Source of the DNA: an uncultured Candidatus Binatia bacterium
GTDB taxonomy: Bacteria > Desulfobacterota > Binatia > UBA9968 > JAJDTQ01
Length of the DNA stretch: 64,000 bases
Assembly (NCBI GenBank): GCA_964291295.2
Contig: OZ219754.1
Span: 768,001-832,000 of the forward strand
Reading direction: 5' to 3'
The position numbers were made by a program, and so were the translations under genes. Below are positions 1,826 to 12,175 of the stretch, in pieces. The stretch's first letter is position 1. Each line of letters starts with the position of its first letter. The notes under the pieces were generated by a model. That model saw nothing but the letters and a program-made list of their open reading frames with translations, ran no database searches and was not told where the DNA came from.

Positions 1826-2611
1826 ATGAGACTTGCAGAACAGGTCGCCGTCGTCGTCGGCGGCGCCCGCGGCATCGGCGAAGCCATTGCCCATACCTTC
1901 GCCCGCGAGGGTGCAAAGATCATCCTGGTGGACCTGGAGAAGACCAAGCCCGAGCTTGACGGCGTGGTTCGAGCCATCCGGCGGAACGGCGGAGAGGCGA
2001 CCGCACTGACGGCCGACGCCACCGACGCGGCGCAGGTCGAGCGCATGGTGGCCGACGTCGTGAGCCGCTGGGGCCGGCTGGACATCCTCGTCAACAGCGT
2101 CGGCTTCCGCGGCCCCATGGTGCCGGTACACGAGATCACCGAAGAAGATTGGGACGCCGTCCTCGAGGTCAACCTCAAGGCGGCCTTTCTCTGCTGCAAG
2201 GCCGCGCTGAAGGTAATGATGGAGCGGAAGCGCGGCAGCATCGTCAGCATCTCGGGCACCGCCGGGCGCGAAGGCATGGCGCTGCGCGGCTCCCTGTGCG
2301 CCGCCAAGTGGGGCCTTCTGGGACTCACCCAGACCATCGCAAGGGAGGCCGGCCCCTCCGGCGTCCGCGCCAACGTCATCTGCCCCGGCGGCATGGACGA
2401 GGCCGACCTGCGGGACATGTACCGGGAACGGGCGAAAGGACTCGGCGTCTCCTTCGAGGCGCTGGAGAAGAGCGTCCTGGCACAGACCCCGCTGCGGAAA
2501 CACGCCCGGCACCAGGAAGTCGCCAACGCCGCCCTCTTCCTCGCCTCCGACGACTCCTCCCACACCACCGGCGAAGCACTGAACGTCTCGGGCGGCCGGC
2601 TGATGTCATGA
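1826..2611 (+). CDS. SDR family NAD(P)-dependent oxidoreductase
   Basis: GGARGIG, LDILVN and ANVICPGG motifs; GGAGG RBS before ATG 1826. Confidence 0.9.
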   Translation: MRLAEQVAVVVGGARGIGEAIAHTFAREGAKIILVDLEKTKPELDGVVRAIRRNGGEATALTADATDAAQVERMVADVVSRWGRLDILVNSVGFRGPMVPVHEITEEDWDAVLEVNLKAAFLCCKAALKVMMERKRGSIVSISGTAGREGMALRGSLCAAKWGLLGLTQTIAREAGPSGVRANVICPGGMDEADLRDMYRERAKGLGVSFEALEKSVLAQTPLRKHARHQEVANAALFLASDDSSHTTGEALNVSGGRLMS

Positions 2612-2778
2612 GCCGCCCGGGCGGTGACGGACACGCACCGTTGAACCACCAGTGGAAATCTGCGAGACTCGCCCCATGCATGCTGGCATAAGTGTTGCTG
2701 ATACAACCTTATGTGTGGAGTGTATCCCAATTGACCGGAGCGGCAGTGTTGCCGAACGTCTCAGGGTCGGGAAGTCCC

Positions 2779-4026
2779 ATGGGATCGCCTCACAGGCAAC
2801 CTAAGTTGCCGAAATATAATCACAAACTTTCTTCCCCGGGTACTTCGGCGTTCTCGTATCCAGAGCAGGGCATATACCTTGATTATGCTGCGACGACCCC
2901 GGTTGCGCCGGAAGTCGCGCACACGATGGCCAAGTTTCTGACGGCCGACGGCGTCTTTGGAAACCCGCACTCCGTCACCCACCGCTTTGGGCATGCAGCT
3001 TCGGAGGCCGTTGAGGAGGCCCGCGAACATGTCGCGGCGTTGATTGGTGCCGAGGCCGATGACATCTTCTGGACCTCGGGTGCAACAGAGTCGATCAATC
3101 TGGCCATCAAGGGAGCACTGTTATCCCCTGGCGTACACGGCCGGCACCTGCTCGTCTCCTCACTTGAGCATAGAGCGGTACTCGACACCGCACGCTGGCT
3201 CTCCGACAAAGACCTTGACGTGACGTACCTTGCGCCTGATGCGGATGGTTTGATCACACCGGAGGTCGTCCGCGCGGGCCTTCGACCGGACACCGCGCTG
3301 GTCTCTCTCATGCACGTCAACAATGAGGTCGGCACCGTCACCGACATTTCGAGCGTCGCCCGCATGGTGCGGAACAACGGAACACTGCTTCATGTTGACG
3401 CCGCACAAAGTGCCGCACGACTCCCGATCGATGTATCGCTGATGGACGTCGATCTGCTGTCATTGAGCAGCCACAAGATCTACGGCCCGAAAGGAGTGGG
3501 GGCATTGTTTGTGCGGCGGTCTGTTCAGCCGTTGCTTGTGCCTCAAATCCACGGAGGCGGGCAGGAACATGGATTGCGGGCCGGTACGCTGGCGACCCAT
3601 CAGGTCGTTGGCATGGGAGCGGCGGCACGGCTCCTTGACGACTGTCAGAGTAGCGACGCGGAACGAGTGGCAGCCATTGACCGACGCCTCCTTGGCTGGC
3701 TGGTCGGAATTGAGGGGGCAGTCGTCAACGGCAACCGTATCGCACGAGTCCCAGGCATACTGAACATCGCCTTTCCAGGCGTGGAGGCCGAATCGCTGAT
3801 GCTGGCTCTTGACAAAGTGGCGGTCTCGGCAGGCTCCGCGTGCACGGCTTCATCCATTGAGCCCTCACACGTACTGGAAGGACTTGGTGTCACCGACACG
3901 CTGGCACTCTCCTCCGTACGATTCAGCGTGGGTCGCTATACGACGGAGGCGGACGTCGACACCGCTGGACAACGCGTTCATGACGCCGTGGCGGCTCTCC
4001 GGACCATTAGGGGCATTACGGTATGA
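2779..4026 (+). CDS. dndA: Cysteine desulfurase, IscS/DndA-like (start uncertain, 2692-2870)
   Basis: YLDYAATTP, SGATES, HVDAAQ, SSHKIYGPKG (PLP Lys), SAGSAC (catalytic Cys); ATGA-coupled to the dndC-like gene. Confidence 0.85.
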   Translation: MGSPHRQPKLPKYNHKLSSPGTSAFSYPEQGIYLDYAATTPVAPEVAHTMAKFLTADGVFGNPHSVTHRFGHAASEAVEEAREHVAALIGAEADDIFWTSGATESINLAIKGALLSPGVHGRHLLVSSLEHRAVLDTARWLSDKDLDVTYLAPDADGLITPEVVRAGLRPDTALVSLMHVNNEVGTVTDISSVARMVRNNGTLLHVDAAQSAARLPIDVSLMDVDLLSLSSHKIYGPKGVGALFVRRSVQPLLVPQIHGGGQEHGLRAGTLATHQVVGMGAAARLLDDCQSSDAERVAAIDRRLLGWLVGIEGAVVNGNRIARVPGILNIAFPGVEAESLMLALDKVAVSAGSACTASSIEPSHVLEGLGVTDTLALSSVRFSVGRYTTEADVDTAGQRVHDAVAALRTIRGITV

Positions 4027-5195
4027 AGGCATCGACGGATTCCCATACCAGCCGTAGTCGCTTGACGAGTCTACCGACGCGCCTCAACAAGATTGCGGAC
4101 ACGCTTCGAGGCGAGTACGGGCGAAAGCACAGCCATCCCTGGATTGTTGCCTATTCCGGAGGGAAAGACTCTACCCTTCTCCTGCAGATGATTTGGGAAA
4201 CCGTGATGGCGCTGCCGACAGAGCGGCGTCACCGATCCATCCTGGTCGTCGGCAACGACACTCTCGTTGAGTCGCCACTCGTCATTCGACATATGCGAGA
4301 ATCGCTCAAAGTGATCGGAGACGCCGCCGCGGCACAAGAAATGCCCGTCGACATTCGTGTCACCACACCAGCCATCGACCAGACATTCTGGGTCAGTGTG
4401 ATAGGGCGAGGCTACATCCCGCCCACAAGGAATTTTCGGTGGTGCACGGACCGGATGAAAATTCGGCCGACCAGCCAGTTGCTGCGGGACATCGTGAGGG
4501 AGTACGGAGGAGCCTTTCTCCTGATTGGTACCCGCCGGAGCGAATCGCAAAACCGGCAGCGCGGCATGGACCGGCGCAAGGTGTCTGCCGGAAAAGCCAA
4601 TCATCACGACTCTGTAGACGGCTGCCGTATCTTCTCTCCACTTGCCGACCTCGACGATGACGATGTCTGGATGGTCTTGATGCAGCGCCGCCCGCCTTGG
4701 GGTGGCACCCATCGCCACCTAATCACTCTCTATCGTCAGGCTGGCGGGGGCGAATGCCCTCTGGTCATGACCCGGGATGACGCACCATCCTGTGGCACTT
4801 CCTCCCCGCGGTTCGGTTGTTGGACATGCACCGTGGTCGCCAAAGACCGCAGTCTTCGGGGCCTGATCGACTCGGGACACAAGGACGCCACGAAGATGGA
4901 AAGCCTGTCGGACTTCCGCGAGTGGCTCATCGCTCTGCGTGAGGACAACAGCAATCGCCTACCTGTGCGCCGCGACGGTAACCCGCGGAACCGTGCTGAC
5001 GGCTCCCAAGTATTCGGTCCGTTCACCCTAGCCGTTCGTGAAACCATTCTGGAACGACTCCTCGCACTGGAGAAAACGATCGGCGACACCCTCATCAGCC
5101 CGGCCGAGATCGAGTGCATCGAAGATGTCTGGTGGCGTGACAGAATCACCGAAAACGGACGCCTCGCCCTGCTCGAATCCGTAAACGCCCCATGA
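4023..5195 (+). CDS. dndC: DndC-like DNA phosphorothioation sulfurtransferase (PAPS-reductase/PP-loop fold)
   Basis: AYSGGKDS PP-loop, NDTLVESP, GRGYIPP...FRWCTDRMKIRP, GTRRSES, GGECP, RFGCWTCTVV (Fe-S cysteines), GPFTL. Confidence 0.85.
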   Translation: MKASTDSHTSRSRLTSLPTRLNKIADTLRGEYGRKHSHPWIVAYSGGKDSTLLLQMIWETVMALPTERRHRSILVVGNDTLVESPLVIRHMRESLKVIGDAAAAQEMPVDIRVTTPAIDQTFWVSVIGRGYIPPTRNFRWCTDRMKIRPTSQLLRDIVREYGGAFLLIGTRRSESQNRQRGMDRRKVSAGKANHHDSVDGCRIFSPLADLDDDDVWMVLMQRRPPWGGTHRHLITLYRQAGGGECPLVMTRDDAPSCGTSSPRFGCWTCTVVAKDRSLRGLIDSGHKDATKMESLSDFREWLIALREDNSNRLPVRRDGNPRNRADGSQVFGPFTLAVRETILERLLALEKTIGDTLISPAEIECIEDVWWRDRITENGRLALLESVNAP

Positions 5196-6967
5196 CCCGG
5201 GTCACGTCAGAGGTACTGCTTGTGTCCCAACTCTTCCTCAAGGGACGCTTCACCGTGCCATGGCATCAACGGTACTACGACTGGACCCTGGAACAGGTCA
5301 CCGAACTGCTGGTCGACCTGAAGGAGGCTCGCGACGAAGGCCGATCCAGTTATTTTCTCGGGTCCATCATGCTCGTCAAAGGCGAGGATGTCTGGGAAAT
5401 CAACGACGGCCAACAGCGTCTCATCACGCTTTCCCTGCTTTTTGCGGCGTTTGGCCGTCGGTTCGCAAGGAACCGGGAAAGCGACGGTGGCCGCGAGATG
5501 CTCGCATTACGCGTCCTGTTCGACCGTCCTGACACCGCCGTCGATAATTTTGACGATACGACACGCGCAGTACCGCGCATCAAGCCGCCACGTCAGGACC
5601 GATCGCGTTTTACTCAGATTATCCGTGGACTCGATATCGGCACGAACGGCAAACTGACCTCGACCTGGAATGAGGTGGCGCTGTTCGTCAGTGCAATGGG
5701 TTCACCTGAAACCCGAATGTTCTTCGACTTCCTTGTGGAGAAGGTTGAGGTTGGTGTTCTCTACGTCCCGAAGACAGAAGACGCCAACGCCGTCTTCGAG
5801 GCCTTGAACGGGCGTGGCAAACGATTGGACGATGTCGATCTGATCCGGAACCATCTCTACTCATACTTCAGCGATTCTACCGATACACAGCGTCGCCAAG
5901 CTGTCCACACACAGCTTGAAAACGTACTTGCCACCACTCGAAACCCTACTCGGTCGCAAGAGTACTTCCGCTGCTTTTTCCAGTGCAAGTACGGCTATCT
6001 TCAGAAGAAACGATTTTACCGGGATACGCGCGCGAAAATCCGCAGTTCTGTCGGCCGCCAAGATGGAGACCCATACGTCTACTTGCTCATTCATGAACTT
6101 GCCAAACCCGCCAGTGTTGAACTGTTTCGCACCATCAGTGCCACAAACCCGAGCCAGGAACTGCTTGATGCCTTCTGCAAAGCATCCGGGACCACGATGG
6201 CCAAGCGCAACCTGCCCGTTTTCATTCGGGAACTGCGTGGCTACAAGGTCGTTCAACCATTGATGTTCGCGCTACTGCGGCGGTTTGTCGAGGCTGGAGA
6301 TCAGGACCGGCACTCCGTAGCCAAAGCCGCCCATCGGTGCCTCAGCGATCTCTCCTCCTTCGTGATGCGAGTCTCTTTCTGCGAGGTCAAATTCGAACCA
6401 TCCAGACTCGAGCCGGGATTTGCCAATTGCGCCAGGAGAGTCGCCGCCAGCACCAAGGTCACGGATCTCGATATCACGACCGATCTCGAAGAGTGTGACG
6501 ATTTGCCGATAATGGATGACGCGCGATTTATTGCTCGACTCGTCGAAATACAGATGACCGACTCCCGTCGCGCCAAACGCTTGCTGTTCGGAATCATTGC
6601 CGAACAAGAACCGGAAGGCCGTGCCTTCGACTACGAGGGCTGTTCCGTGGAGCATATCTTGCCGCAGTCGAAAACCTATTGGCCCGGTTGGACCGGCTTC
6701 AAGTCGGCCGGACCCGACCTCCGGGACTGGGTTGCCCGGATCGGCAACCTGACACTGCTGGGCGACAACGTCGCCCATGCTCGGCACAGTTTCAACGCCA
6801 ACTTCGCCGCCAAGAAGCCAGATTTTGAACACAGCCCATTTGCAATGACACGCGACATTGCAAAACATGAGGACTGGACGCCAACGGCAGTGGCCGAACG
6901 CTCAAGGGACCTTGCAAAGGCGGCCAGTCAGGTATGGTGCTTTTCCAGATCCGCGGCGCGAGGATGA
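5192..6967 (+). CDS. DUF262 + DUF1524/HNH nuclease (GmrSD/SspE-like)
   Basis: VPWHQRYYDW, FLGSI, DGQQR, FEALNGRG.L..DLIRN (DUF262); C-terminal VEHILPQ...IGNLTLL...N (HNH-type DUF1524). Confidence 0.88.
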   Translation: MTRVTSEVLLVSQLFLKGRFTVPWHQRYYDWTLEQVTELLVDLKEARDEGRSSYFLGSIMLVKGEDVWEINDGQQRLITLSLLFAAFGRRFARNRESDGGREMLALRVLFDRPDTAVDNFDDTTRAVPRIKPPRQDRSRFTQIIRGLDIGTNGKLTSTWNEVALFVSAMGSPETRMFFDFLVEKVEVGVLYVPKTEDANAVFEALNGRGKRLDDVDLIRNHLYSYFSDSTDTQRRQAVHTQLENVLATTRNPTRSQEYFRCFFQCKYGYLQKKRFYRDTRAKIRSSVGRQDGDPYVYLLIHELAKPASVELFRTISATNPSQELLDAFCKASGTTMAKRNLPVFIRELRGYKVVQPLMFALLRRFVEAGDQDRHSVAKAAHRCLSDLSSFVMRVSFCEVKFEPSRLEPGFANCARRVAASTKVTDLDITTDLEECDDLPIMDDARFIARLVEIQMTDSRRAKRLLFGIIAEQEPEGRAFDYEGCSVEHILPQSKTYWPGWTGFKSAGPDLRDWVARIGNLTLLGDNVAHARHSFNANFAAKKPDFEHSPFAMTRDIAKHEDWTPTAVAERSRDLAKAASQVWCFSRSAARG

Positions 6968-7099
6968 TCCACGAAACTGCATGAGCTTGTAGTTCCCGGG
7001 TCGTAGCGCAAATTCGATGACGAAGTGCATTTCACACGCGGCTATCGCGACGTGTCAACGAGATGCGTCCGAAACGACCGTCTCTGCGTGAATCTTCGA

Positions 7100-8518
7100 A
7101 TGACGCACAACGCTCAGGCTCTCCGGCATGCAGGGGAAGATCAACTCAGGCTTCCCGCACCCCTGCACAACTACCAGTGGGAAGGCGTTGCATTCCTGTA
7201 CCAGTCCACCGCTGCCCTCCTTGCTGACGAGATGGGACTGGGGAAGACCGTCCAGGCGGCGGTCGCCTTGGCACTTCTTCTCAATGGTCAGAAGGGGATC
7301 GACCGAGCCCTGATCGTGGCACCGGCTTCGTTGACCCTGAACTGGATGTCCGAACTCGCCACTTGGGCACCGTCACTTGCGGCGCGACGGCTTCAGGGTG
7401 GAGCCGCCAGCCGGAGGGCCTCCTACCTGTTGCCGATACCTGTCCTCGTTTCCTCTTATGAACAGATCCGTCAGGATGGACTGGACCAGATTCCCAGAGA
7501 TACGTTCGATCTCGTGATCCTGGACGAGGCACAACGCATCAAGAACAGGAACTCGGCAACGGCGCTTGCCTGCCGGCTGCTACCGCGAAAACGTGCGTGG
7601 GCACTGTCCGCGACACCGCTCGAAAACGACCGTGAAGACGTCGCATCGATCCTGGCTTTCCTGGATCCCGATGTTCGTCGAGACCCCGATGCAAGGCGTC
7701 TGAAGGACAGGCTTGAGGCGATGATGCTGCGGAGACGCAAACGCGAAGTACGTGCCGAACTGCCACCCGTCATCGTACAGGATCTCAACCTGGAGCTTTC
7801 CACGCCGCAGAGAATTGCCTATGACGATCTGTGGACGGGGAGGGAGACACAAATCGACAAGGAACGATCGAGCGATTTTCACGCCGCCATGCTGGGACTC
7901 ATTACGCGACTCAAGGTGATCTGCAACTACGATGTGGCAAGCGGTGTTTCATCGAAACTGGAGGCCCTCATAGGCATTTGCGAAGGCGCCGGGCCATCGG
8001 CACGGTTGCTGCTGTTTTCGCAGTTCGTTCAGACCTTGCGACGAATCTCCCGTTCGATCGGAATACCTCACGACCTTTTGACCGGCTCCATGTCGACAAC
8101 CGAAAGACAAGTTTCGATCGACCGGTTCAGGACCGGCCAAACCCCGAGAGCCCTGTTGGTTTCCCTTCGCGCCGGCGGCGTCGGCCTTAACCTCGGGGAA
8201 GCCACCCACTCGGTTCTGTTCGACCGATGGTGGAACCCAGCGGTTGAGTTCCAGGCAATCTACAGAGCGCACCGCTTCGATCGGGAAGAGCCCCTGCATG
8301 TCATTCGTTTCGTGGTCCGAGATTCGATCGAAGAGCGAATTGCTTCGGTACTCGACCGGAAAGAGGCCCTGTTCGATGAGATCGTTGAATCTGCAGGAGC
8401 GGCACGGGGCCGACTCACCCAGCGGGAACTGATGGAGATCCTGGAACTCGTGGAGGGCAATCGCCCGCCCCCCACTCATGCAACCAAAGGAGACGAAAAG
8501 GATGGCGAAAATCGTTGA
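7100..8518 (+). CDS. Minimal SNF2/SWI2-family DEAD/DEAH-box ATPase
   Basis: LADEMGLGKT, DEAQRIKN, LSATPLEN, FSQF, AGGVGLNL, WWNPA, RAHR motifs; no accessory N-terminal domain. Confidence 0.9.
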   Translation: MTHNAQALRHAGEDQLRLPAPLHNYQWEGVAFLYQSTAALLADEMGLGKTVQAAVALALLLNGQKGIDRALIVAPASLTLNWMSELATWAPSLAARRLQGGAASRRASYLLPIPVLVSSYEQIRQDGLDQIPRDTFDLVILDEAQRIKNRNSATALACRLLPRKRAWALSATPLENDREDVASILAFLDPDVRRDPDARRLKDRLEAMMLRRRKREVRAELPPVIVQDLNLELSTPQRIAYDDLWTGRETQIDKERSSDFHAAMLGLITRLKVICNYDVASGVSSKLEALIGICEGAGPSARLLLFSQFVQTLRRISRSIGIPHDLLTGSMSTTERQVSIDRFRTGQTPRALLVSLRAGGVGLNLGEATHSVLFDRWWNPAVEFQAIYRAHRFDREEPLHVIRFVVRDSIEERIASVLDRKEALFDEIVESAGAARGRLTQRELMEILELVEGNRPPPTHATKGDEKDGENR

Positions 8519-9326
8519 GTACCGCGACATACCCCTCGACGACCTGGTGATTGGTCTTGGGCAAGTGCGGACGGACAATACCGGTGCCGGGGTTGAGGAA
8601 CTTGCGGCGAGCATCGAATCCCAGGGTCTGCTTCAACCGATCGTCGTCTGCGAGGCGACAAAACCCGAGAAATGGGAGATCCTCACCGGTCAGCGGCGCT
8701 TCCTCGCTCACAAGATGCTGAAACGAGAGACCATTTCGGCTGCGGTCCTTGACGGTCGTGTCGGAGAGGCACAGGCCAAAGCGATCTCGATTACTGAAAA
8801 CCTGATACGGCGCAAGCTCTCGGGCAAGGAACTCAAGGACGGGATCCTTTATCTGTATAACATCTACGGCAGTGTGAAGGATGTGGTCAAGACAACAGGC
8901 CTGCCTAATCGTGAGGTGCGGGACTACGTGAAGTATCCCCGGCTGGCGGAACCACTGAAGGACATGGTCGACGAAGGAAAAGTGGATATCAATGCCGCCC
9001 TTCGTGCCCAGGACTCGGCAACGGACGACGACGGTGTGGTCCATACCGAGGATGCCCTTGCCCTGGCAAAAGAGATGGCGTCGATGTCAGGAGCTCAACG
9101 CAAGAAGGTGGCACAGGACCGGAAAAACAACCCCGACAAACCAGTCGCGGACGTGATAGAGGATGCGAAGTCCGGGGCCAGAGTCATCCAGATAATTGCA
9201 GAAGTGACACTGGATACGCATCAAGCGATTCGGACGGTTGCACGGGAAGAAGGTATGAACCAAGGAGAAGCAACCGTCTGTCTGATCGAGGAGGCGCTGA
9301 ACGGCCGAGGGCTTCTGGAGCGGTAG
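8502..9326 (+). CDS. ParB/Spo0J/Srx-family protein (N-terminal CTPase-like domain, HTH, possible C-terminal RHH-like tail)
   Basis: ELAASI..QGLLQPIVV, ILTGQRRFLA (GxxR box), ENLIRRKLS; AAGGAGA RBS. Confidence 0.85.
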   Translation: MAKIVEYRDIPLDDLVIGLGQVRTDNTGAGVEELAASIESQGLLQPIVVCEATKPEKWEILTGQRRFLAHKMLKRETISAAVLDGRVGEAQAKAISITENLIRRKLSGKELKDGILYLYNIYGSVKDVVKTTGLPNREVRDYVKYPRLAEPLKDMVDEGKVDINAALRAQDSATDDDGVVHTEDALALAKEMASMSGAQRKKVAQDRKNNPDKPVADVIEDAKSGARVIQIIAEVTLDTHQAIRTVAREEGMNQGEATVCLIEEALNGRGLLER

Positions 9327-9331
9327 CTGTC

Positions 9332-10042
9332 ATGTTGCCAGGCCTGAGCCCTCTGGAACTGGGGCGTCTCCGGATGTCTGTCGGTTACGGGCAGCACAAG
9401 AAGGGGCGTCTCCTCTCGCCGACCGAAGTCGGCATATTGCTACAGCGGGCGTGCAACGCGGGCAGTTCGCTTGACGAATGTGCCAGGGAGATACGAATCG
9501 ACGCGACGGGCCTCCGTCGTTTCCTGCGTATTCTTGATCTTCCGGACGACATCCGACACTTGGTCAGTTGGGGTAGCCCTCGAGATGCTGTGTCGTTCTC
9601 CTGTGCCGCAGAGTTGGCCCGAATTCCGGGAGCCGACGACCAGCGCACGGTTGTCGAAGCAATACTCGTCAACGGGATGAACAGCAAGGAGGTCCGACAG
9701 GTCGCGCAACTTCACGAACGTTCGGGACGACCGGTAAGCAAATGTGTGGAAGAAGTCCTCCACATGAGGCCAACGATCGAACGGCGTTACGTTTTCATCG
9801 GCACCATCATCGACGAGAGTGTACAGCAAGCCCTCGCCGGACTCCCACAAAGAGAAAGAGACGCACTGCTGGCGGCGAGCGTGGAGAAAATCGGCCTCGA
9901 GGGGGCATCCGGACGACTTGGGTCCAAATTTTTCACCTTGGTCGGGGAGGACAGATTCGGCGCGTCAATGGAGCGTGTCGGCAAGCAAGAGATTGAGGCT
10001 CGGCTACGCGCCCATGTCGCGGGGTGTATCGAGAGTGTCTGA
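9332..10042 (+). CDS. Hypothetical protein resembling the HTH/helical C-terminal half of ParB, without the CTPase domain
   Basis: LSPTEVG..L......SLDECAREI......LRRFLRILDLPDDIRHLV...VSFSCAAELARI...DQ..V...I...GM follows the ParB HTH pattern; 5 bp after parB and overlapping the next gene. Confidence 0.6.
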   Translation: MLPGLSPLELGRLRMSVGYGQHKKGRLLSPTEVGILLQRACNAGSSLDECAREIRIDATGLRRFLRILDLPDDIRHLVSWGSPRDAVSFSCAAELARIPGADDQRTVVEAILVNGMNSKEVRQVAQLHERSGRPVSKCVEEVLHMRPTIERRYVFIGTIIDESVQQALAGLPQRERDALLAASVEKIGLEGASGRLGSKFFTLVGEDRFGASMERVGKQEIEARLRAHVAGCIESV

Positions 10043-11057
10043 CTCGGTCGTTGACGTCCGGGAGAGCGGGAGCGTCTGCCTTGGCGAAACAGTCGTGTGT
10101 GACGGGTTCGCAAACGGCTACCGGTTTCGTGTTCAGACTCATGTCCATGAAGACCACATGGGTGGATTCAACAAGAGCAAAGGCCTGCAGGAGTTCTTGC
10201 TGAGCCCGGAGACCTACGCGCTGCTCATCGCCGAATACAACGCGGATCTGGAGTACCGCGAGAATTTTCAACCCCTCGAACGCGGCGTAGCGCATGTATT
10301 GGAAGAAGGCTCCACGCTGCGTCTGGTTCCATCAAACCACATGCTCGGATCATGCCAGGTCGCCCTCGAATTGCCCGACGGCCTCCGGATCGGGTATTCC
10401 AGCGACTTCGGCTGGCCCCTTGATGAGGTCATCCAGGTCGATGAACTGGTCGTAGACAGCACCTATGGTAACCCTCACAGCGTCCGCGGTTACACGCAGG
10501 ACCAGGCGGAGGCATGCTTGTCTGAAATAGTGTGTACAAGACTGCGGCACGGTTCGGTCCATATACACGCCCACTCTGGAACCATCGAACGCACCGTACA
10601 GATACTTGGCGACAACGTGGGTGTTCCCCTTCTGGCCACCGAGCAGCTTATCCGGCGCGTCCAGGTATACCAGCAGCATGGTCTCGCACCCGGGGTACTT
10701 GTTCCACTCGATTCAGACGACGGTAGGCATGCCGTCCAACAGCGTTCATATGTGCGGCTCTACTCGAAGGGCGACGGTTTCAAAAACGAAAGGGTCGAGG
10801 GGACAATGGTCACCTGTAGCGCCTACATGGTTGACCGAGATCATCCACTGAAAGTCTTCTCGGATCGGGCCTGCCGAGTGGCACTGTCGAACCACGCTGA
10901 TTTCGAAGAGACCCTTGCCTATGTGGCGGCAACCGGAGCGCGAACGGTCGTCACCGACAACACGCGAAACTATGGCCGTGATCTGGCAATCGCGATCAAC
11001 AATCGCCTGCCCAACGTTCGCGCGCTGCCCTCGACGAACCAATCCGAAAGGGACTGA
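10035..11057 (+). CDS. Metallo-beta-lactamase fold, beta-CASP-type nuclease
   Basis: THVHEDH, NHMLGS, YSSDF, DSTYG, LSNHADF motifs; GTG start overlaps the upstream stop. Confidence 0.8.
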   Translation: MSDSVVDVRESGSVCLGETVVCDGFANGYRFRVQTHVHEDHMGGFNKSKGLQEFLLSPETYALLIAEYNADLEYRENFQPLERGVAHVLEEGSTLRLVPSNHMLGSCQVALELPDGLRIGYSSDFGWPLDEVIQVDELVVDSTYGNPHSVRGYTQDQAEACLSEIVCTRLRHGSVHIHAHSGTIERTVQILGDNVGVPLLATEQLIRRVQVYQQHGLAPGVLVPLDSDDGRHAVQQRSYVRLYSKGDGFKNERVEGTMVTCSAYMVDRDHPLKVFSDRACRVALSNHADFEETLAYVAATGARTVVTDNTRNYGRDLAIAINNRLPNVRALPSTNQSERD

Positions 11058-11083: not shown

Positions 11084-12064
11084 CTACACGTTCACCCGTT
11101 TCATGTCGCGTGTGCGGTTGCCGGCGGCGGCAGCGTAGGGGAAGATGGCGTCGAGCCGTTGCAGGTCTTCGGCGGTGAGTTCGACGTCGATGGCCTTGAC
11201 GTTCTCTTCCAGGTGCGCGCGGCTCTTGCTGCCGGGGATGGGGATGATGTCGGGACCTTGGGCCATGAGCCATGCCAGGGCGAGCTGGGTGGTGGCAATG
11301 CCCTTGTCCCTGGCGACGGCGTCCACTTGGGTCAAGAGATCCAGGTTCCGCTCGATGTTGCCGGGTTGGAGACGGGGCTGGTGGCGGCGGCCGTCGCGTT
11401 CGGAAAGCTGGTCCAGACTGCGCACGGCACCGGCGAAGAAGCCCCGGCCCAGGGGCGAGTAGGCCATGAGCCCCATGCCGAACTCACGGCAGGTCTCGAT
11501 GTTGCCCTGCTCGGGGTCCCGCGACCACAGCGAGTACTCGATCTGGAGCGACACGATGGGGTGGACTTTCCGGGCGCGCCGTATGGAATCGGCGCTGGCC
11601 TCGGACAGGCCGATGTAGCGGCTCTTCCCCTGCTCCACGAGCCGCGCCATGCCGCCCACCGACTCCTCCACCGGAACACCGGGGTCGATGCGGGACATGC
11701 AGTAAACGTCCAGGCAGTCGATGCCCAGCCGCCGGAGGCTCTCCTCGCAGGTCCGGATCAGATATTCGGGCGAGCCGCCGCCGTCGAGGCCGGTTCCGTC
11801 CTGGGCCCGCGGGCTGCCCGATTTGGAGTGGATCACCACCTGGTCGCGCCTGCCCTTGATGGCCTTGCCGATGAGCACGTGGTTGTGTCCGTCGCCGTAG
11901 CTCGCCGAGGTGTCGAGCAGGTTGAGGCCCAACTCGAAGGCCCGGTGCAGCGTGGCGATGGATTCGTCGTCGTCGCGCGCTCCGTACATGCCCGACATGC
12001 TGAGGCAGCCGAGCCCCAGGGGCGCCACCTTGTAGTCGGTGGTGCCGAATTGGCGGTATTCCAT
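11084..12064 (-). CDS. Aldo/keto reductase
   Basis: LGLGCLSMS, LDTSASYG, SLQIEYSLW, AYSPLGRG, IPIPG. Confidence 0.92.
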   Translation of the reverse strand: MEYRQFGTTDYKVAPLGLGCLSMSGMYGARDDDESIATLHRAFELGLNLLDTSASYGDGHNHVLIGKAIKGRRDQVVIHSKSGSPRAQDGTGLDGGGSPEYLIRTCEESLRRLGIDCLDVYCMSRIDPGVPVEESVGGMARLVEQGKSRYIGLSEASADSIRRARKVHPIVSLQIEYSLWSRDPEQGNIETCREFGMGLMAYSPLGRGFFAGAVRSLDQLSERDGRRHQPRLQPGNIERNLDLLTQVDAVARDKGIATTQLALAWLMAQGPDIIPIPGSKSRAHLEENVKAIDVELTAEDLQRLDAIFPYAAAAGNRTRDMKRVNV

Positions 12065-12175
12065 CAGTGATCTCCCCTGTCGCGGCTCAAGCCGGCCGGC
12101 TCCCGGCACTGTCGTGGAGGCCGGGCGTGTGCGCGCCCGTTCCGGCCAAGGTTGTTCTTGCATCCAGGACCATCG

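Follow-up and report, generated by a model that had tools for sequence, protein, structure and literature searches.

A mobile seven-gene island with a short DndC and a ParB and beta-CASP nuclease cassette as a probable two-module phosphorothioate-type defence locus

We analysed a stretch of 64,000 nucleotides (the window, positions 768,001 to 832,000 of the forward strand of contig OZ219754.1, assembly GCA_964291295.2) from an uncultured Candidatus Binatia bacterium and examined an island of about 8.4 kb that lies near its start and carries seven co-directional genes, here called A, C, G, S, P1, P2 and M. We consider it moderately probable that the island represents a mobile and composite restriction-modification locus for defence, which acts through phosphorothioation (PT) of DNA and is built of two modules. 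The first module comprises a cysteine desulfurase (A), a short sulfurtransferase of the DndC family (C) and a DndI-like nuclease (G). The second is a cassette of an SNF2-family ATPase (S), two ParB-type proteins (P1 and P2) and a beta-CASP nuclease (M). The locus would be a PT-type restriction-modification locus with two apparently undescribed components, namely a DndC lineage that stands without DndD and DndE, and a cassette that accompanies PT writers of several kinds.

A first-pass annotation had described the same genes as a single new PT-based system, in which an SspE-like nuclease together with S, P1, P2 and M would take the place of the usual scanning and restriction modules. Its gene calls agree with ours, as all seven open reading frames (ORFs) are present on the + strand at the positions given below, and family scans of the Pfam, PADLOC and NCBIfam type returned the same domain identities for all seven proteins.

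The short DndC and its desulfurase

Gene A (2779..4026, + strand; the ORF opens at 2692 and the start is uncertain) encodes an IscS/DndA/SspA-type cysteine desulfurase with a match to Aminotran_5 at 3e-82. On the PADLOC models the protein scores 478 bits for SspA and 466 bits for DndA, and against the DndA equivalog TIGR03235 it reaches 375 bits, which is under the cut-off of 480. Two motifs are conserved across 77 sequences, HK with the pyridoxal phosphate-binding lysine and the catalytic AC. The desulfurase directly adjoins dndC at this locus, A overlapping C by ATGA.

Gene C (4023..5195, + strand) encodes a short DndC-family PP-loop sulfurtransferase of 390 amino acids (aa). It scores 337.9 bits against TIGR03183 (DndC; cut-off 290.4), with a match that covers only positions 11-341 of the 447 in the profile. 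On the PADLOC models it obtains 363.5 bits for DndC and 24.5 bits for SspD, which sets it apart from SspD-type writers. The motifs SGGKDS and RWCTDR and the residues Cys141/245/257/266/269 are invariant in the alignment. C aligns along its whole length with DndC proteins of about 500 aa and stops where canonical DndC runs on for about 100 residues. Its structural model (pLDDT 79) has a fold like that of the phosphoadenosine phosphosulfate (PAPS) and adenosine phosphosulfate (APS) reductases and the [4Fe-4S] tRNA thiolases. Among solved structures no DndC/TdpC-like chain was found by sequence search or among the listed fold matches, a result that says nothing on relatedness to TdpC. The phage collection yielded only distant DndC-like PAPS reductases with 26-40% identity.

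Short DndC proteins were also seen in other surroundings. Two loci have one of 364-388 aa with DndD and the TIGR04096 'DNA phosphorothioation-associated putative methyltransferase' (L126:4868-10817 and L142:1379-6816), and L126 in addition encodes a DndE-like N-terminus fused to a RuvB-like C-terminal part. In a Dehalococcoidia locus (L037:11163-14156) the short DndC is followed by a fusion of an N6/N4 DNA methylase with an Mrr-type nuclease and by a DndB-like protein, which replace the DndI-like gene.

A DndI-like nuclease predicted to bind the short DndC

Gene G (5192..6967, + strand) encodes a DndI-like GmrSD-type protein of 591 aa that combines a DUF262 NTPase with a DUF1524 HNH domain (GmrSD_N 91.8 bits, GmrSD_C 66.8 bits). 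Its best PADLOC label is HEC-06, a single-gene candidate, and it also matches 'Orf5'. A comparison of the G-family profile with solved structures gave DndI (9JFL) at an E value of 2.6e-27 over both domains and SspE (6JIV) at 1e-15, so that G is closer to DndI than to SspE and the SspE-like assignment of the first-pass annotation has to be given up. The motifs VPWHQRxYDW, INDGQQR and EHxLP are conserved in 64 sequences, and G thereby has the layout of the DndI/SspE-type GmrSD nucleases, with DGQQR in an N-terminal DUF262 and EHxxP in a C-terminal DUF1524 HNH domain.

Prediction of a complex between C and G gave ipSAE values of 0.70, 0.70 and 0.67 in three runs, while the best of 3 controls gave 0.00. 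In calibration 58 of 80 solved complexes and 2 of 110 mismatched pairs came up to the mark; this calibration holds only roughly here since the C-G score came from our own unpaired alignments, which counts somewhat against the model. The runs had at least 93% of their contacts in common, with a partner pLDDT of at least 81. In the modelled interface the last helix of C (residues around 360-388) lies on the central, family-specific region of G (around 124-168, 244-250, 305-331 and 365-367). As no DndC-like chain was found among solved structures, the pass is unlikely to be the memory of a solved complex. The model supports binding of C to G.

Absence of DndD, DndE and the Ssp partners

The first-pass annotation noted that dndD, dndE, sspB and sspC are missing at the locus and asked for a search of the rest of the genome. 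None of the four was found genome-wide by family searches, our own hidden Markov models (HMMs) or phmmer, in an assembly of 3.7 Mb that consists of 3 contigs, is 99.13% complete and encodes one DndC. For DndD, TIGR03185 had no match in the genome, and an HMM built from metagenome loci gave 18.9 bits at most over all six-frame genome ORFs and recovered 30 metagenome loci as a control. A corresponding HMM for DndE had 0 matches in all six-frame genome ORFs of at least 40 aa, again with 30 metagenome loci recovered as a control; TIGR03184 (DndE) likewise had no match in the genome and was also silent in its control. The DUF4007/SspB family PF13182 had no match in the genome, its control being silent as well, and phmmer with the DUF4007 protein and the large AAA protein of locus L135, one query each, found none in the genome and the self matches in the controls. 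The family search for DndB found no match in the genome, and neither did single DndB and DndB-like/GIY-YIG queries. DndD was over the cut-off in none of the 5 other genomes carrying all seven genes.

The S-P1-P2-M cassette

Gene S (7100..8518, + strand; the ORF opens at 7025) encodes an SNF2-family ATPase of 472 aa that consists of the core only, with SNF2-rel_dom at 1e-43 and Helicase_C. On PADLOC it matches the C-terminal halves of the DpdE and ZorD models, best DpdE with 186.6 bits. Walker A (GLGKT), the DExx box (DEAQ) and motif VI (QA..RAHR) are all kept across 72 sequences. P1 (8502..9326, + strand; the ORF opens at 8478) is a ParB-type protein with a ParB_N NTPase fold and a helix-turn-helix (HTH) domain, which reached 49.9 bits (3e-13) for ParB_N and 62.4 bits for TIGR00180 (cut-off 58.45). 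Its motifs GQRRFLA and TENLxR are conserved in 94 sequences, and we take them to be the nucleoside triphosphate (NTP)-pocket motifs of ParB (GxRR box II and ENLxR box III). P1 appears to have the ParB-CTPase fold, with putative NTP binding and clamp behaviour. The paralogue P2 (9332..10042, + strand) corresponds to the HTH/DNA-binding part of ParB only. It has a weak HTH_ParB match of 20 bits (27 bits in the L036 homologue), and an alignment of 24 sequences showed few invariant residues and no catalytic motif.

Gene M (10035..11057, + strand; GTG start, the ORF opens at 9819) encodes a compact beta-CASP metallo-beta-lactamase nuclease of 340 aa, which matches Lactamase_B_2 weakly and also matches TIGR04122. 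Residues H36, H38, D40 and H41 (HxHxDH), H102, D124 and H287 are invariant in 19 sequences, and the profile matches aCPSF1/FttA and SNM1A. The beta-CASP fold named in the earlier annotation is borne out by the AlphaFold model (pLDDT 86.6), which in Foldseek resembles CPSF3, Artemis, Apollo and SNM1A over the full length (E 1e-14 to 1e-12, TM 0.6-0.75). At least 1251 protein clusters belong to the M family, either without a name or labelled 'putative mRNA 3-end processing factor'. A tblastn search of the plasmid collection with M found no match.

A metagenome scan centred on M found 113 relatives, from which the best 80 (36-66% identity) were kept; 29 loci had enough flank to be read. The order S-P1-P2-M is always kept in these loci, or P1-P2-M in a few (L121, L140 and L141). 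A dndC of about 500 aa with dndD is present in 20 of the 29, with dndB in several. In the NCBIfam check dndD was found in the nine loci tested, and dndE was over the cut-off in L114 and L117 and weaker in L121, L128 and L126; our own DndE HMM matched 30 of the 80 M-centred loci. The short C with G is found in 2 of the 29, and 2 more have other PAPS reductases (L100 and L130). At L135:646-11026 and in L136, with L134 being similar, a DUF4007 (SspB-like) protein, an AAA protein of 1152 aa and a PAPS reductase of 282 aa precede S-P1-P2-M, and the writer of L135 and L136 is, judged by these families, Ssp-like rather than Dnd-type. DndE and DndA lie at the contig edges in L084, and L140 and L147 have no PT writer in the flank. 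Altogether 26 of the 29 loci carry a PAPS-reductase-type writer, and one further locus has DndE/DndA.

S-P1-P2-M is thus a general partner of PT writers of several kinds. The proposal that it replaces the usual scanning module, DndD and DndE, is contradicted by the same loci. The cassette also lies beside dndC-dndD-dndE(-dndA) operons that are complete and beside Ssp-like writers, which makes it an add-on to PT writers. A separate observation concerns L106:4899-5801, where S-P1-P2-M and a dndBCDE(A) operon are separated by the gene of a 'phosphorothioated DNA-binding restriction endonuclease' (NF045808, 327 bits); this locus stacks two putative PT readers.

Conservation and the two modules

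A scan for C with one genome per species gave 567 relatives, and the best 80 (60-87% identity) were kept. The records of these 80 name Candidatus Binatia, Acidobacteriota, Gammaproteobacteria, Gemmatimonadota and Thermodesulfobacteriota, and further Bacteroidota/Rhodothermales, Latescibacterota, Chloroflexota and Dadabacteria, which makes at least 9 phylum-level taxa in total. In 74 loci at least 6.5 kb downstream of C was available. C and G are adjacent in 70 of these 74 informative loci, and 41 have the complete S-P1-P2-M after C-G (35 with A in the flank and 6 without it). A further 27 have C-G only, with or without A, and 6 show other or partial patterns. With an equal gene order in 41 of 74 related loci, the cluster is far beyond chance, and the conservation that was expected of it in other genomes is found. 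It matches no named system in full, neither among the PADLOC and NCBIfam models nor in the description of PbeABCD. All seven genes are under purifying selection, with dN/dS of 0.06-0.22 against the nearest relative.

The loci without M are informative about the second module. G is there usually followed by a GIY-YIG protein of about 110 aa and a DndB-family protein (PF14072) of about 425 aa, for example at L009:12940-14584 and in L017, L020, L064 and L073. Pfam recognised DndB in 4 of 4 such accessory pairs and GIY-YIG in 3 of 4. By tblastn a DndB-like gene is present in 28 of the 38 loci without M, 25 of these with a GIY-YIG gene, whereas among the 42 loci with M no more than 4 show even a remote DndB-like match. 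S-P1-P2-M and the pair of GIY-YIG and DndB-like proteins are nearly mutually exclusive after C-G. Since the DndB-like gene is distributed in this way, the C-G core takes one of two accessory modules, each made of a ParB-superfamily protein and a nuclease.

The earlier view of a single seven-gene system therefore stands for the conserved order and fails for the indivisible unit, the locus consisting of two separable modules that co-evolve separately, A-C-G and S-P1-P2-M. In 31 loci the Spearman correlation of the identities to the window was 0.73 between C and G and 0.65-0.79 among S, P1, P2 and M, and 0.15-0.41 between the blocks; these values use identities to one reference among kin loci and are descriptive only, which limits the weight that they lend to the two-module structure. 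Three loci (L006, L007 and L043) have the second block inverted or at another place. The gap of 132 bp that separates the modules (6968..7099, unstranded) coincides with the boundary of the co-evolving blocks and with the point of inversion or exchange in other loci.

Comparison with known systems

The Dnd modification module consists of DndA, DndC, DndD and DndE; a DndA-type desulfurase and DndC are present here, and DndD and DndE are not. The locus resembles the IscS-DndBCDE-DndI system of Salmonella enterica Cerro 87 (PMC11662687, as far as its available text goes; PDB 9JFL), which also has a desulfurase, a DndC and a PT-sensing nuclease of about 590 aa with DUF262 (DGQQR) and DUF1524 HNH domains. 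It differs from that system in having no DndB, DndD or DndE, a C without the C-terminal extension, a His for Tyr25 in G, and an extra effector cassette. The central region of G that cannot be aligned with DndI is where the model places C.

The Tdp system reportedly comes from thermophiles and is said to have a hexameric ATPase and a nuclease as partners. Its likeness to our locus lies in the writer, which according to the accessible part of PMC12914056 needs only a single DndC-like gene, without DndD and DndE. The partner genes of TdpABC, the system of An et al. (2025, Nat Chem Biol), differ from ours in name and number, a distinction made by description only. Because TdpC alone is stated there to suffice for PT synthesis (PMC12914056, same part), a helper-free PT writer has precedent. 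Also mentioned in the same text are dndC clusters, small and unvalidated, that contain a P-loop NTPase and in one case a DUF262 gene (PMC12914056), and these may overlap with the short-DndC family.

SspABCD-SspE shares with the locus a desulfurase, a PAPS-reductase-type writer and a DUF262/HNH effector, and A scores best on SspA. The genome, however, has no SspB (DUF4007) or SspC-like ATPase, C is like DndC and not like SspD, and G matches SspE less well than DndI. In their genomic logic DndFGH, SspFGH and PbeABCD are similar to S-P1-P2-M, as they are multi-gene, exchangeable cassettes beside PT writers with a translocase or helicase and, for DndFGH, a nuclease, but they are built of entirely other protein families. 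Among the PADLOC matches listed (the best 25 for S and for G) there was no DndF/G/H or SspF/G/H model. The identification of S-P1-P2-M with PbeABCD was also considered and is ruled out: PbeABCD, as given in the available part of PMC6459918, comprises a PLD-helicase, a 66-aa protein, an SMC-like ATPase and a 152-aa protein, a domain content different from SNF2, ParB, ParB-HTH and beta-CASP. The 7-deazaguanine system Dpd likewise has a ParB-superfamily protein (the ParB-like ATPase DpdB) and an SNF2-type ATPase (DpdE) in a DNA-modification defence locus. The match of S, however, is confined to the C-terminal half of DpdE, which holds the ATPase, a sulfurtransferase serves as the writer here, and no Dpd family other than DpdE is among the family matches listed for the seven proteins.

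In the text, outside figures and supplements, of open-access papers and bioRxiv preprints we found no description of a DndA-short DndC-DUF262/HNH locus without DndD and DndE, nor of an SNF2-ParB-ParB-beta-CASP cassette linked to dnd or ssp. The restriction branches listed in the accessible part of a 2025 review are only dndFGH/sspFGH, sspE and pbeABCD (PMC12707154). A cassette of SNF2, ParB, ParB and a nuclease that tracks at least 3 kinds of PT writer is a challenge to this division into three branches. In the same way, a conserved DndC lineage without DndD/DndE or SspB/SspC challenges the view of the writer as a sulfurtransferase with an ATPase and a DNA-recognising partner.

Proposed mechanism and alternatives

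In the mechanism that we propose, A would mobilise the sulfur of cysteine and persulfurate C. C, as an ATP-pyrophosphatase with Fe-S-type cysteines, would then adenylate or thiolate the DNA backbone without DndD or DndE, while bound to G through its C-terminal helix. G, a predicted DndI-like NTPase and HNH nickase, would tell marked self DNA from the unmarked DNA of an invader and nick the latter. It may also supply the NTPase, nicking and DNA-recognition or site-choice functions that DndD/DndE or SspB/SspC have elsewhere; if anything replaces DndD and DndE at this locus, G does. In the second module P1 would load as an NTP-dependent DNA clamp together with its HTH-only paralogue P2, S would translocate on double-stranded DNA, and M, as a beta-CASP DNase, would degrade DNA without the mark. 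S-P1-P2-M would in this way form a second, exchangeable effector cassette that accompanies several kinds of PT writer.

A number of points weigh against this interpretation. For this locus family, PT chemistry and phage defence are predictions from gene content and sequence. The available text of the 2025 review counts an ATPase and a DNA-recognising component among the core activities of a writer (PMC12707154), and that of Rakesh, Aravind and Krishnan calls DndD and DndE the obligatory core of Dnd modification (PMC10853773); C moreover lacks the C-terminal extension (about 100 aa) of canonical DndC. The central part of G (profile positions 264-468) fails to align with DndI. Tyr25 is the PT-sensing residue of DndI in the accessible part of PMC11662687, and the residue aligned to it is His in 60 of 64 G homologues, Tyr in 3 and Arg in 1. 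In the corresponding patch P-x-Y-Q-R of G, P23, Q26 and R27 are invariant and His25 stands in place of the tyrosine. Judging from this substitution, G may read another mark, or may read PT differently. A scan for promoters and terminators gave 2 and 8 candidate sites, respectively, counts that did not exceed those of shuffled sequences, and the operons are thus not delimited by such signals above chance. Finally, S-P1-P2-M could regulate or assist modification and not restrict.

Other explanations were considered as well. A and the short C might install another mark, either a different thio- or adenylyl-modification of DNA or one on another nucleic acid, which G and S-P1-P2-M would then read. 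The histidine in G would fit such a mark, as would the absence of DndD/E and SspB/C from the genome and the want of the canonical C-terminal domain in a protein whose fold is common to many PP-loop thiolases and adenylyltransferases with other substrates. We nevertheless regard it as unlikely, since C is above the curated DndC cut-off and keeps every conserved DndC cysteine, since the accessory genes are either DndB-like or belong to the cassette found in other loci beside Ssp-like writers and bona fide dndCDE, and since TdpC offers a precedent, in the part of PMC12914056 available, for a PT writer without helpers. The genes might also be what is left of a classical dnd locus in decay, dndD and dndE having been lost; their absence would fit, and a true remnant does exist in the related genome G012, with A and 224 of the 390 residues of C. 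For the locus of the window this explanation, which the first-pass annotation had named as a possible refutation, is scarcely credible: the order without DndD and DndE recurs in dozens of loci over at least 9 phylum-level taxa, dN/dS is low in all seven genes, the catalytic motifs are conserved, and the other carrier genomes that were searched have no DndD either.

GmrSD-type proteins often act alone, and defence genes cluster without functional coupling. Two or three independent defence systems could accordingly lie side by side here, G being a stand-alone type IV nuclease and S-P1-P2-M working independently of PT. The separate co-evolution of the blocks, the optional or inverted second block in relatives and the single-gene label HEC-06 of G are in keeping with this idea. 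It is quite unlikely, however, in view of the adjacency of G and the short C in 70 of 74 loci, their ATGA coupling here, their identity correlation and the C-G model; S-P1-P2-M, for its part, has a PAPS-reductase-type writer or DndE/DndA beside it in nearly all M-centred loci and is nearly mutually exclusive with the DndB-like pair after C-G. We give little credence, too, to S-P1-P2-M as a helper or regulator of modification that loads or targets the writer in the manner of DpdB or DndB, with G as the only effector. Such a role would recall the ParB-superfamily regulators and ATPase helpers of Dnd (DndB) and Dpd (DpdB), as given in the accessible parts of PMC10853773 and PMC12839542, and it would go with the resemblance of S to the DpdE models and with the DndB-like protein of the alternative accessory module. 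The cassette, however, always holds a nuclease whose metal-binding motifs are intact, the core can do without the cassette, as the 27 loci with C-G only demonstrate, and it also accompanies complete dndCDE(A) operons and operons containing dndB, which need no further helper. A further reading that came into consideration likens the locus to IbrA/IbrB of E. coli, in which a DndC-like protein is paired with a ParB-like regulator.

A more far-reaching version of the two-module reading, which is possible though we are more inclined to doubt it, would make the short DndC and G a physical complex of writer and reader and the core of a self-sufficient PT system of three genes, in which G, by its NTPase, its HNH nickase and its variable central domain, covers the ATPase, nicking and site-recognition roles of DndD/DndE (or SspB/SspC), and S-P1-P2-M a universal PT-sensing restriction cassette for Dnd, Ssp and short-DndC writers, with the SNF2 and beta-CASP proteins guided by the ParB clamp, both having spread laterally through at least 9 phylum-level taxa of one type of community. 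The hosts in question are probably marine sponge symbionts, to judge from record names such as Candidatus Poriferihabitaceae and Porisulfidus, which we take to be members of a sponge consortium. If true, this version would explain why the PT system enriched in sponge metagenomes is called 'not functionally complete' in the available part of Horn et al. 2016 (PMC5099237). Should the function of the locus be confirmed, it would provide a compact PT system for reconstitution, together with PT-dependent effectors of a new class, in which a ParB clamp acting with a beta-CASP DNase would have a role in defence. It would also give a handle on the spread of defence genes across phyla inside one microbial community.

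Insertion site and mobility of the island

The junctions inside the island are as the first-pass annotation had described them. ATGA is shared at A/C and at C/G, the 132-bp gap follows between G and S, S and P1 overlap by 17 bp, P1 and P2 are 5 bp apart, and P2 and M overlap by 8 bp. The ORF map of the window likewise agrees on the flanking genes, both of which belong to the core genome outside the island. A short-chain dehydrogenase (SDR; 1826..2611, + strand) lies on the left and an aldo-keto reductase (AKR; 11084..12163, - strand) on the right. The richer use of A/T-ending codons in the island holds as well, the GC content at third codon positions being 0.65-0.685 in the seven genes, against 0.87 in the SDR gene, 0.87 in the AKR gene and 0.92 in the ORF upstream. 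The overall GC content of the island is 0.584, that of the genome 0.662. No repeat, tRNA or integrase was noticed at the left island junction upstream of A (2612..2778, unstranded).

We compared a 14-kb query with 30 relatives. In six genomes of the same genus (G017, G008, G015, G014, G007 and G018) the SDR and AKR genes are only about 23-200 bp apart and have no island between them, and the alignment to the empty site of G017 is broken off precisely at the stop codon of the SDR gene and, on the other side, shortly before that of the AKR gene. In G016, another genome of the genus, the complete island occupies this SDR/AKR site, with 81% nucleotide identity. The decayed copy of G012 (G012:C43:17015-21846, locus L165) consists of only A and the first 224 of the 390 codons of C at this site. 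Divergent copies, with C at 64-72%, are found at other chromosomal places in G007, G008, G010, G014 and G041. Across the genus, 8 of the 27 other genomes have a DndC-like gene; for the order the count is 16 of 123, our own genome included. The island is horizontally acquired and mobile.

In three genomes of the genus a distance of 8-19 kb separates the SDR gene from the AKR gene, with no match to the island between them (G019:C1:2564500-2574661, G009:C1:3522048-3543027 and G006:C5:1660-11440). The SDR/AKR site may be a hotspot that holds other insertions.

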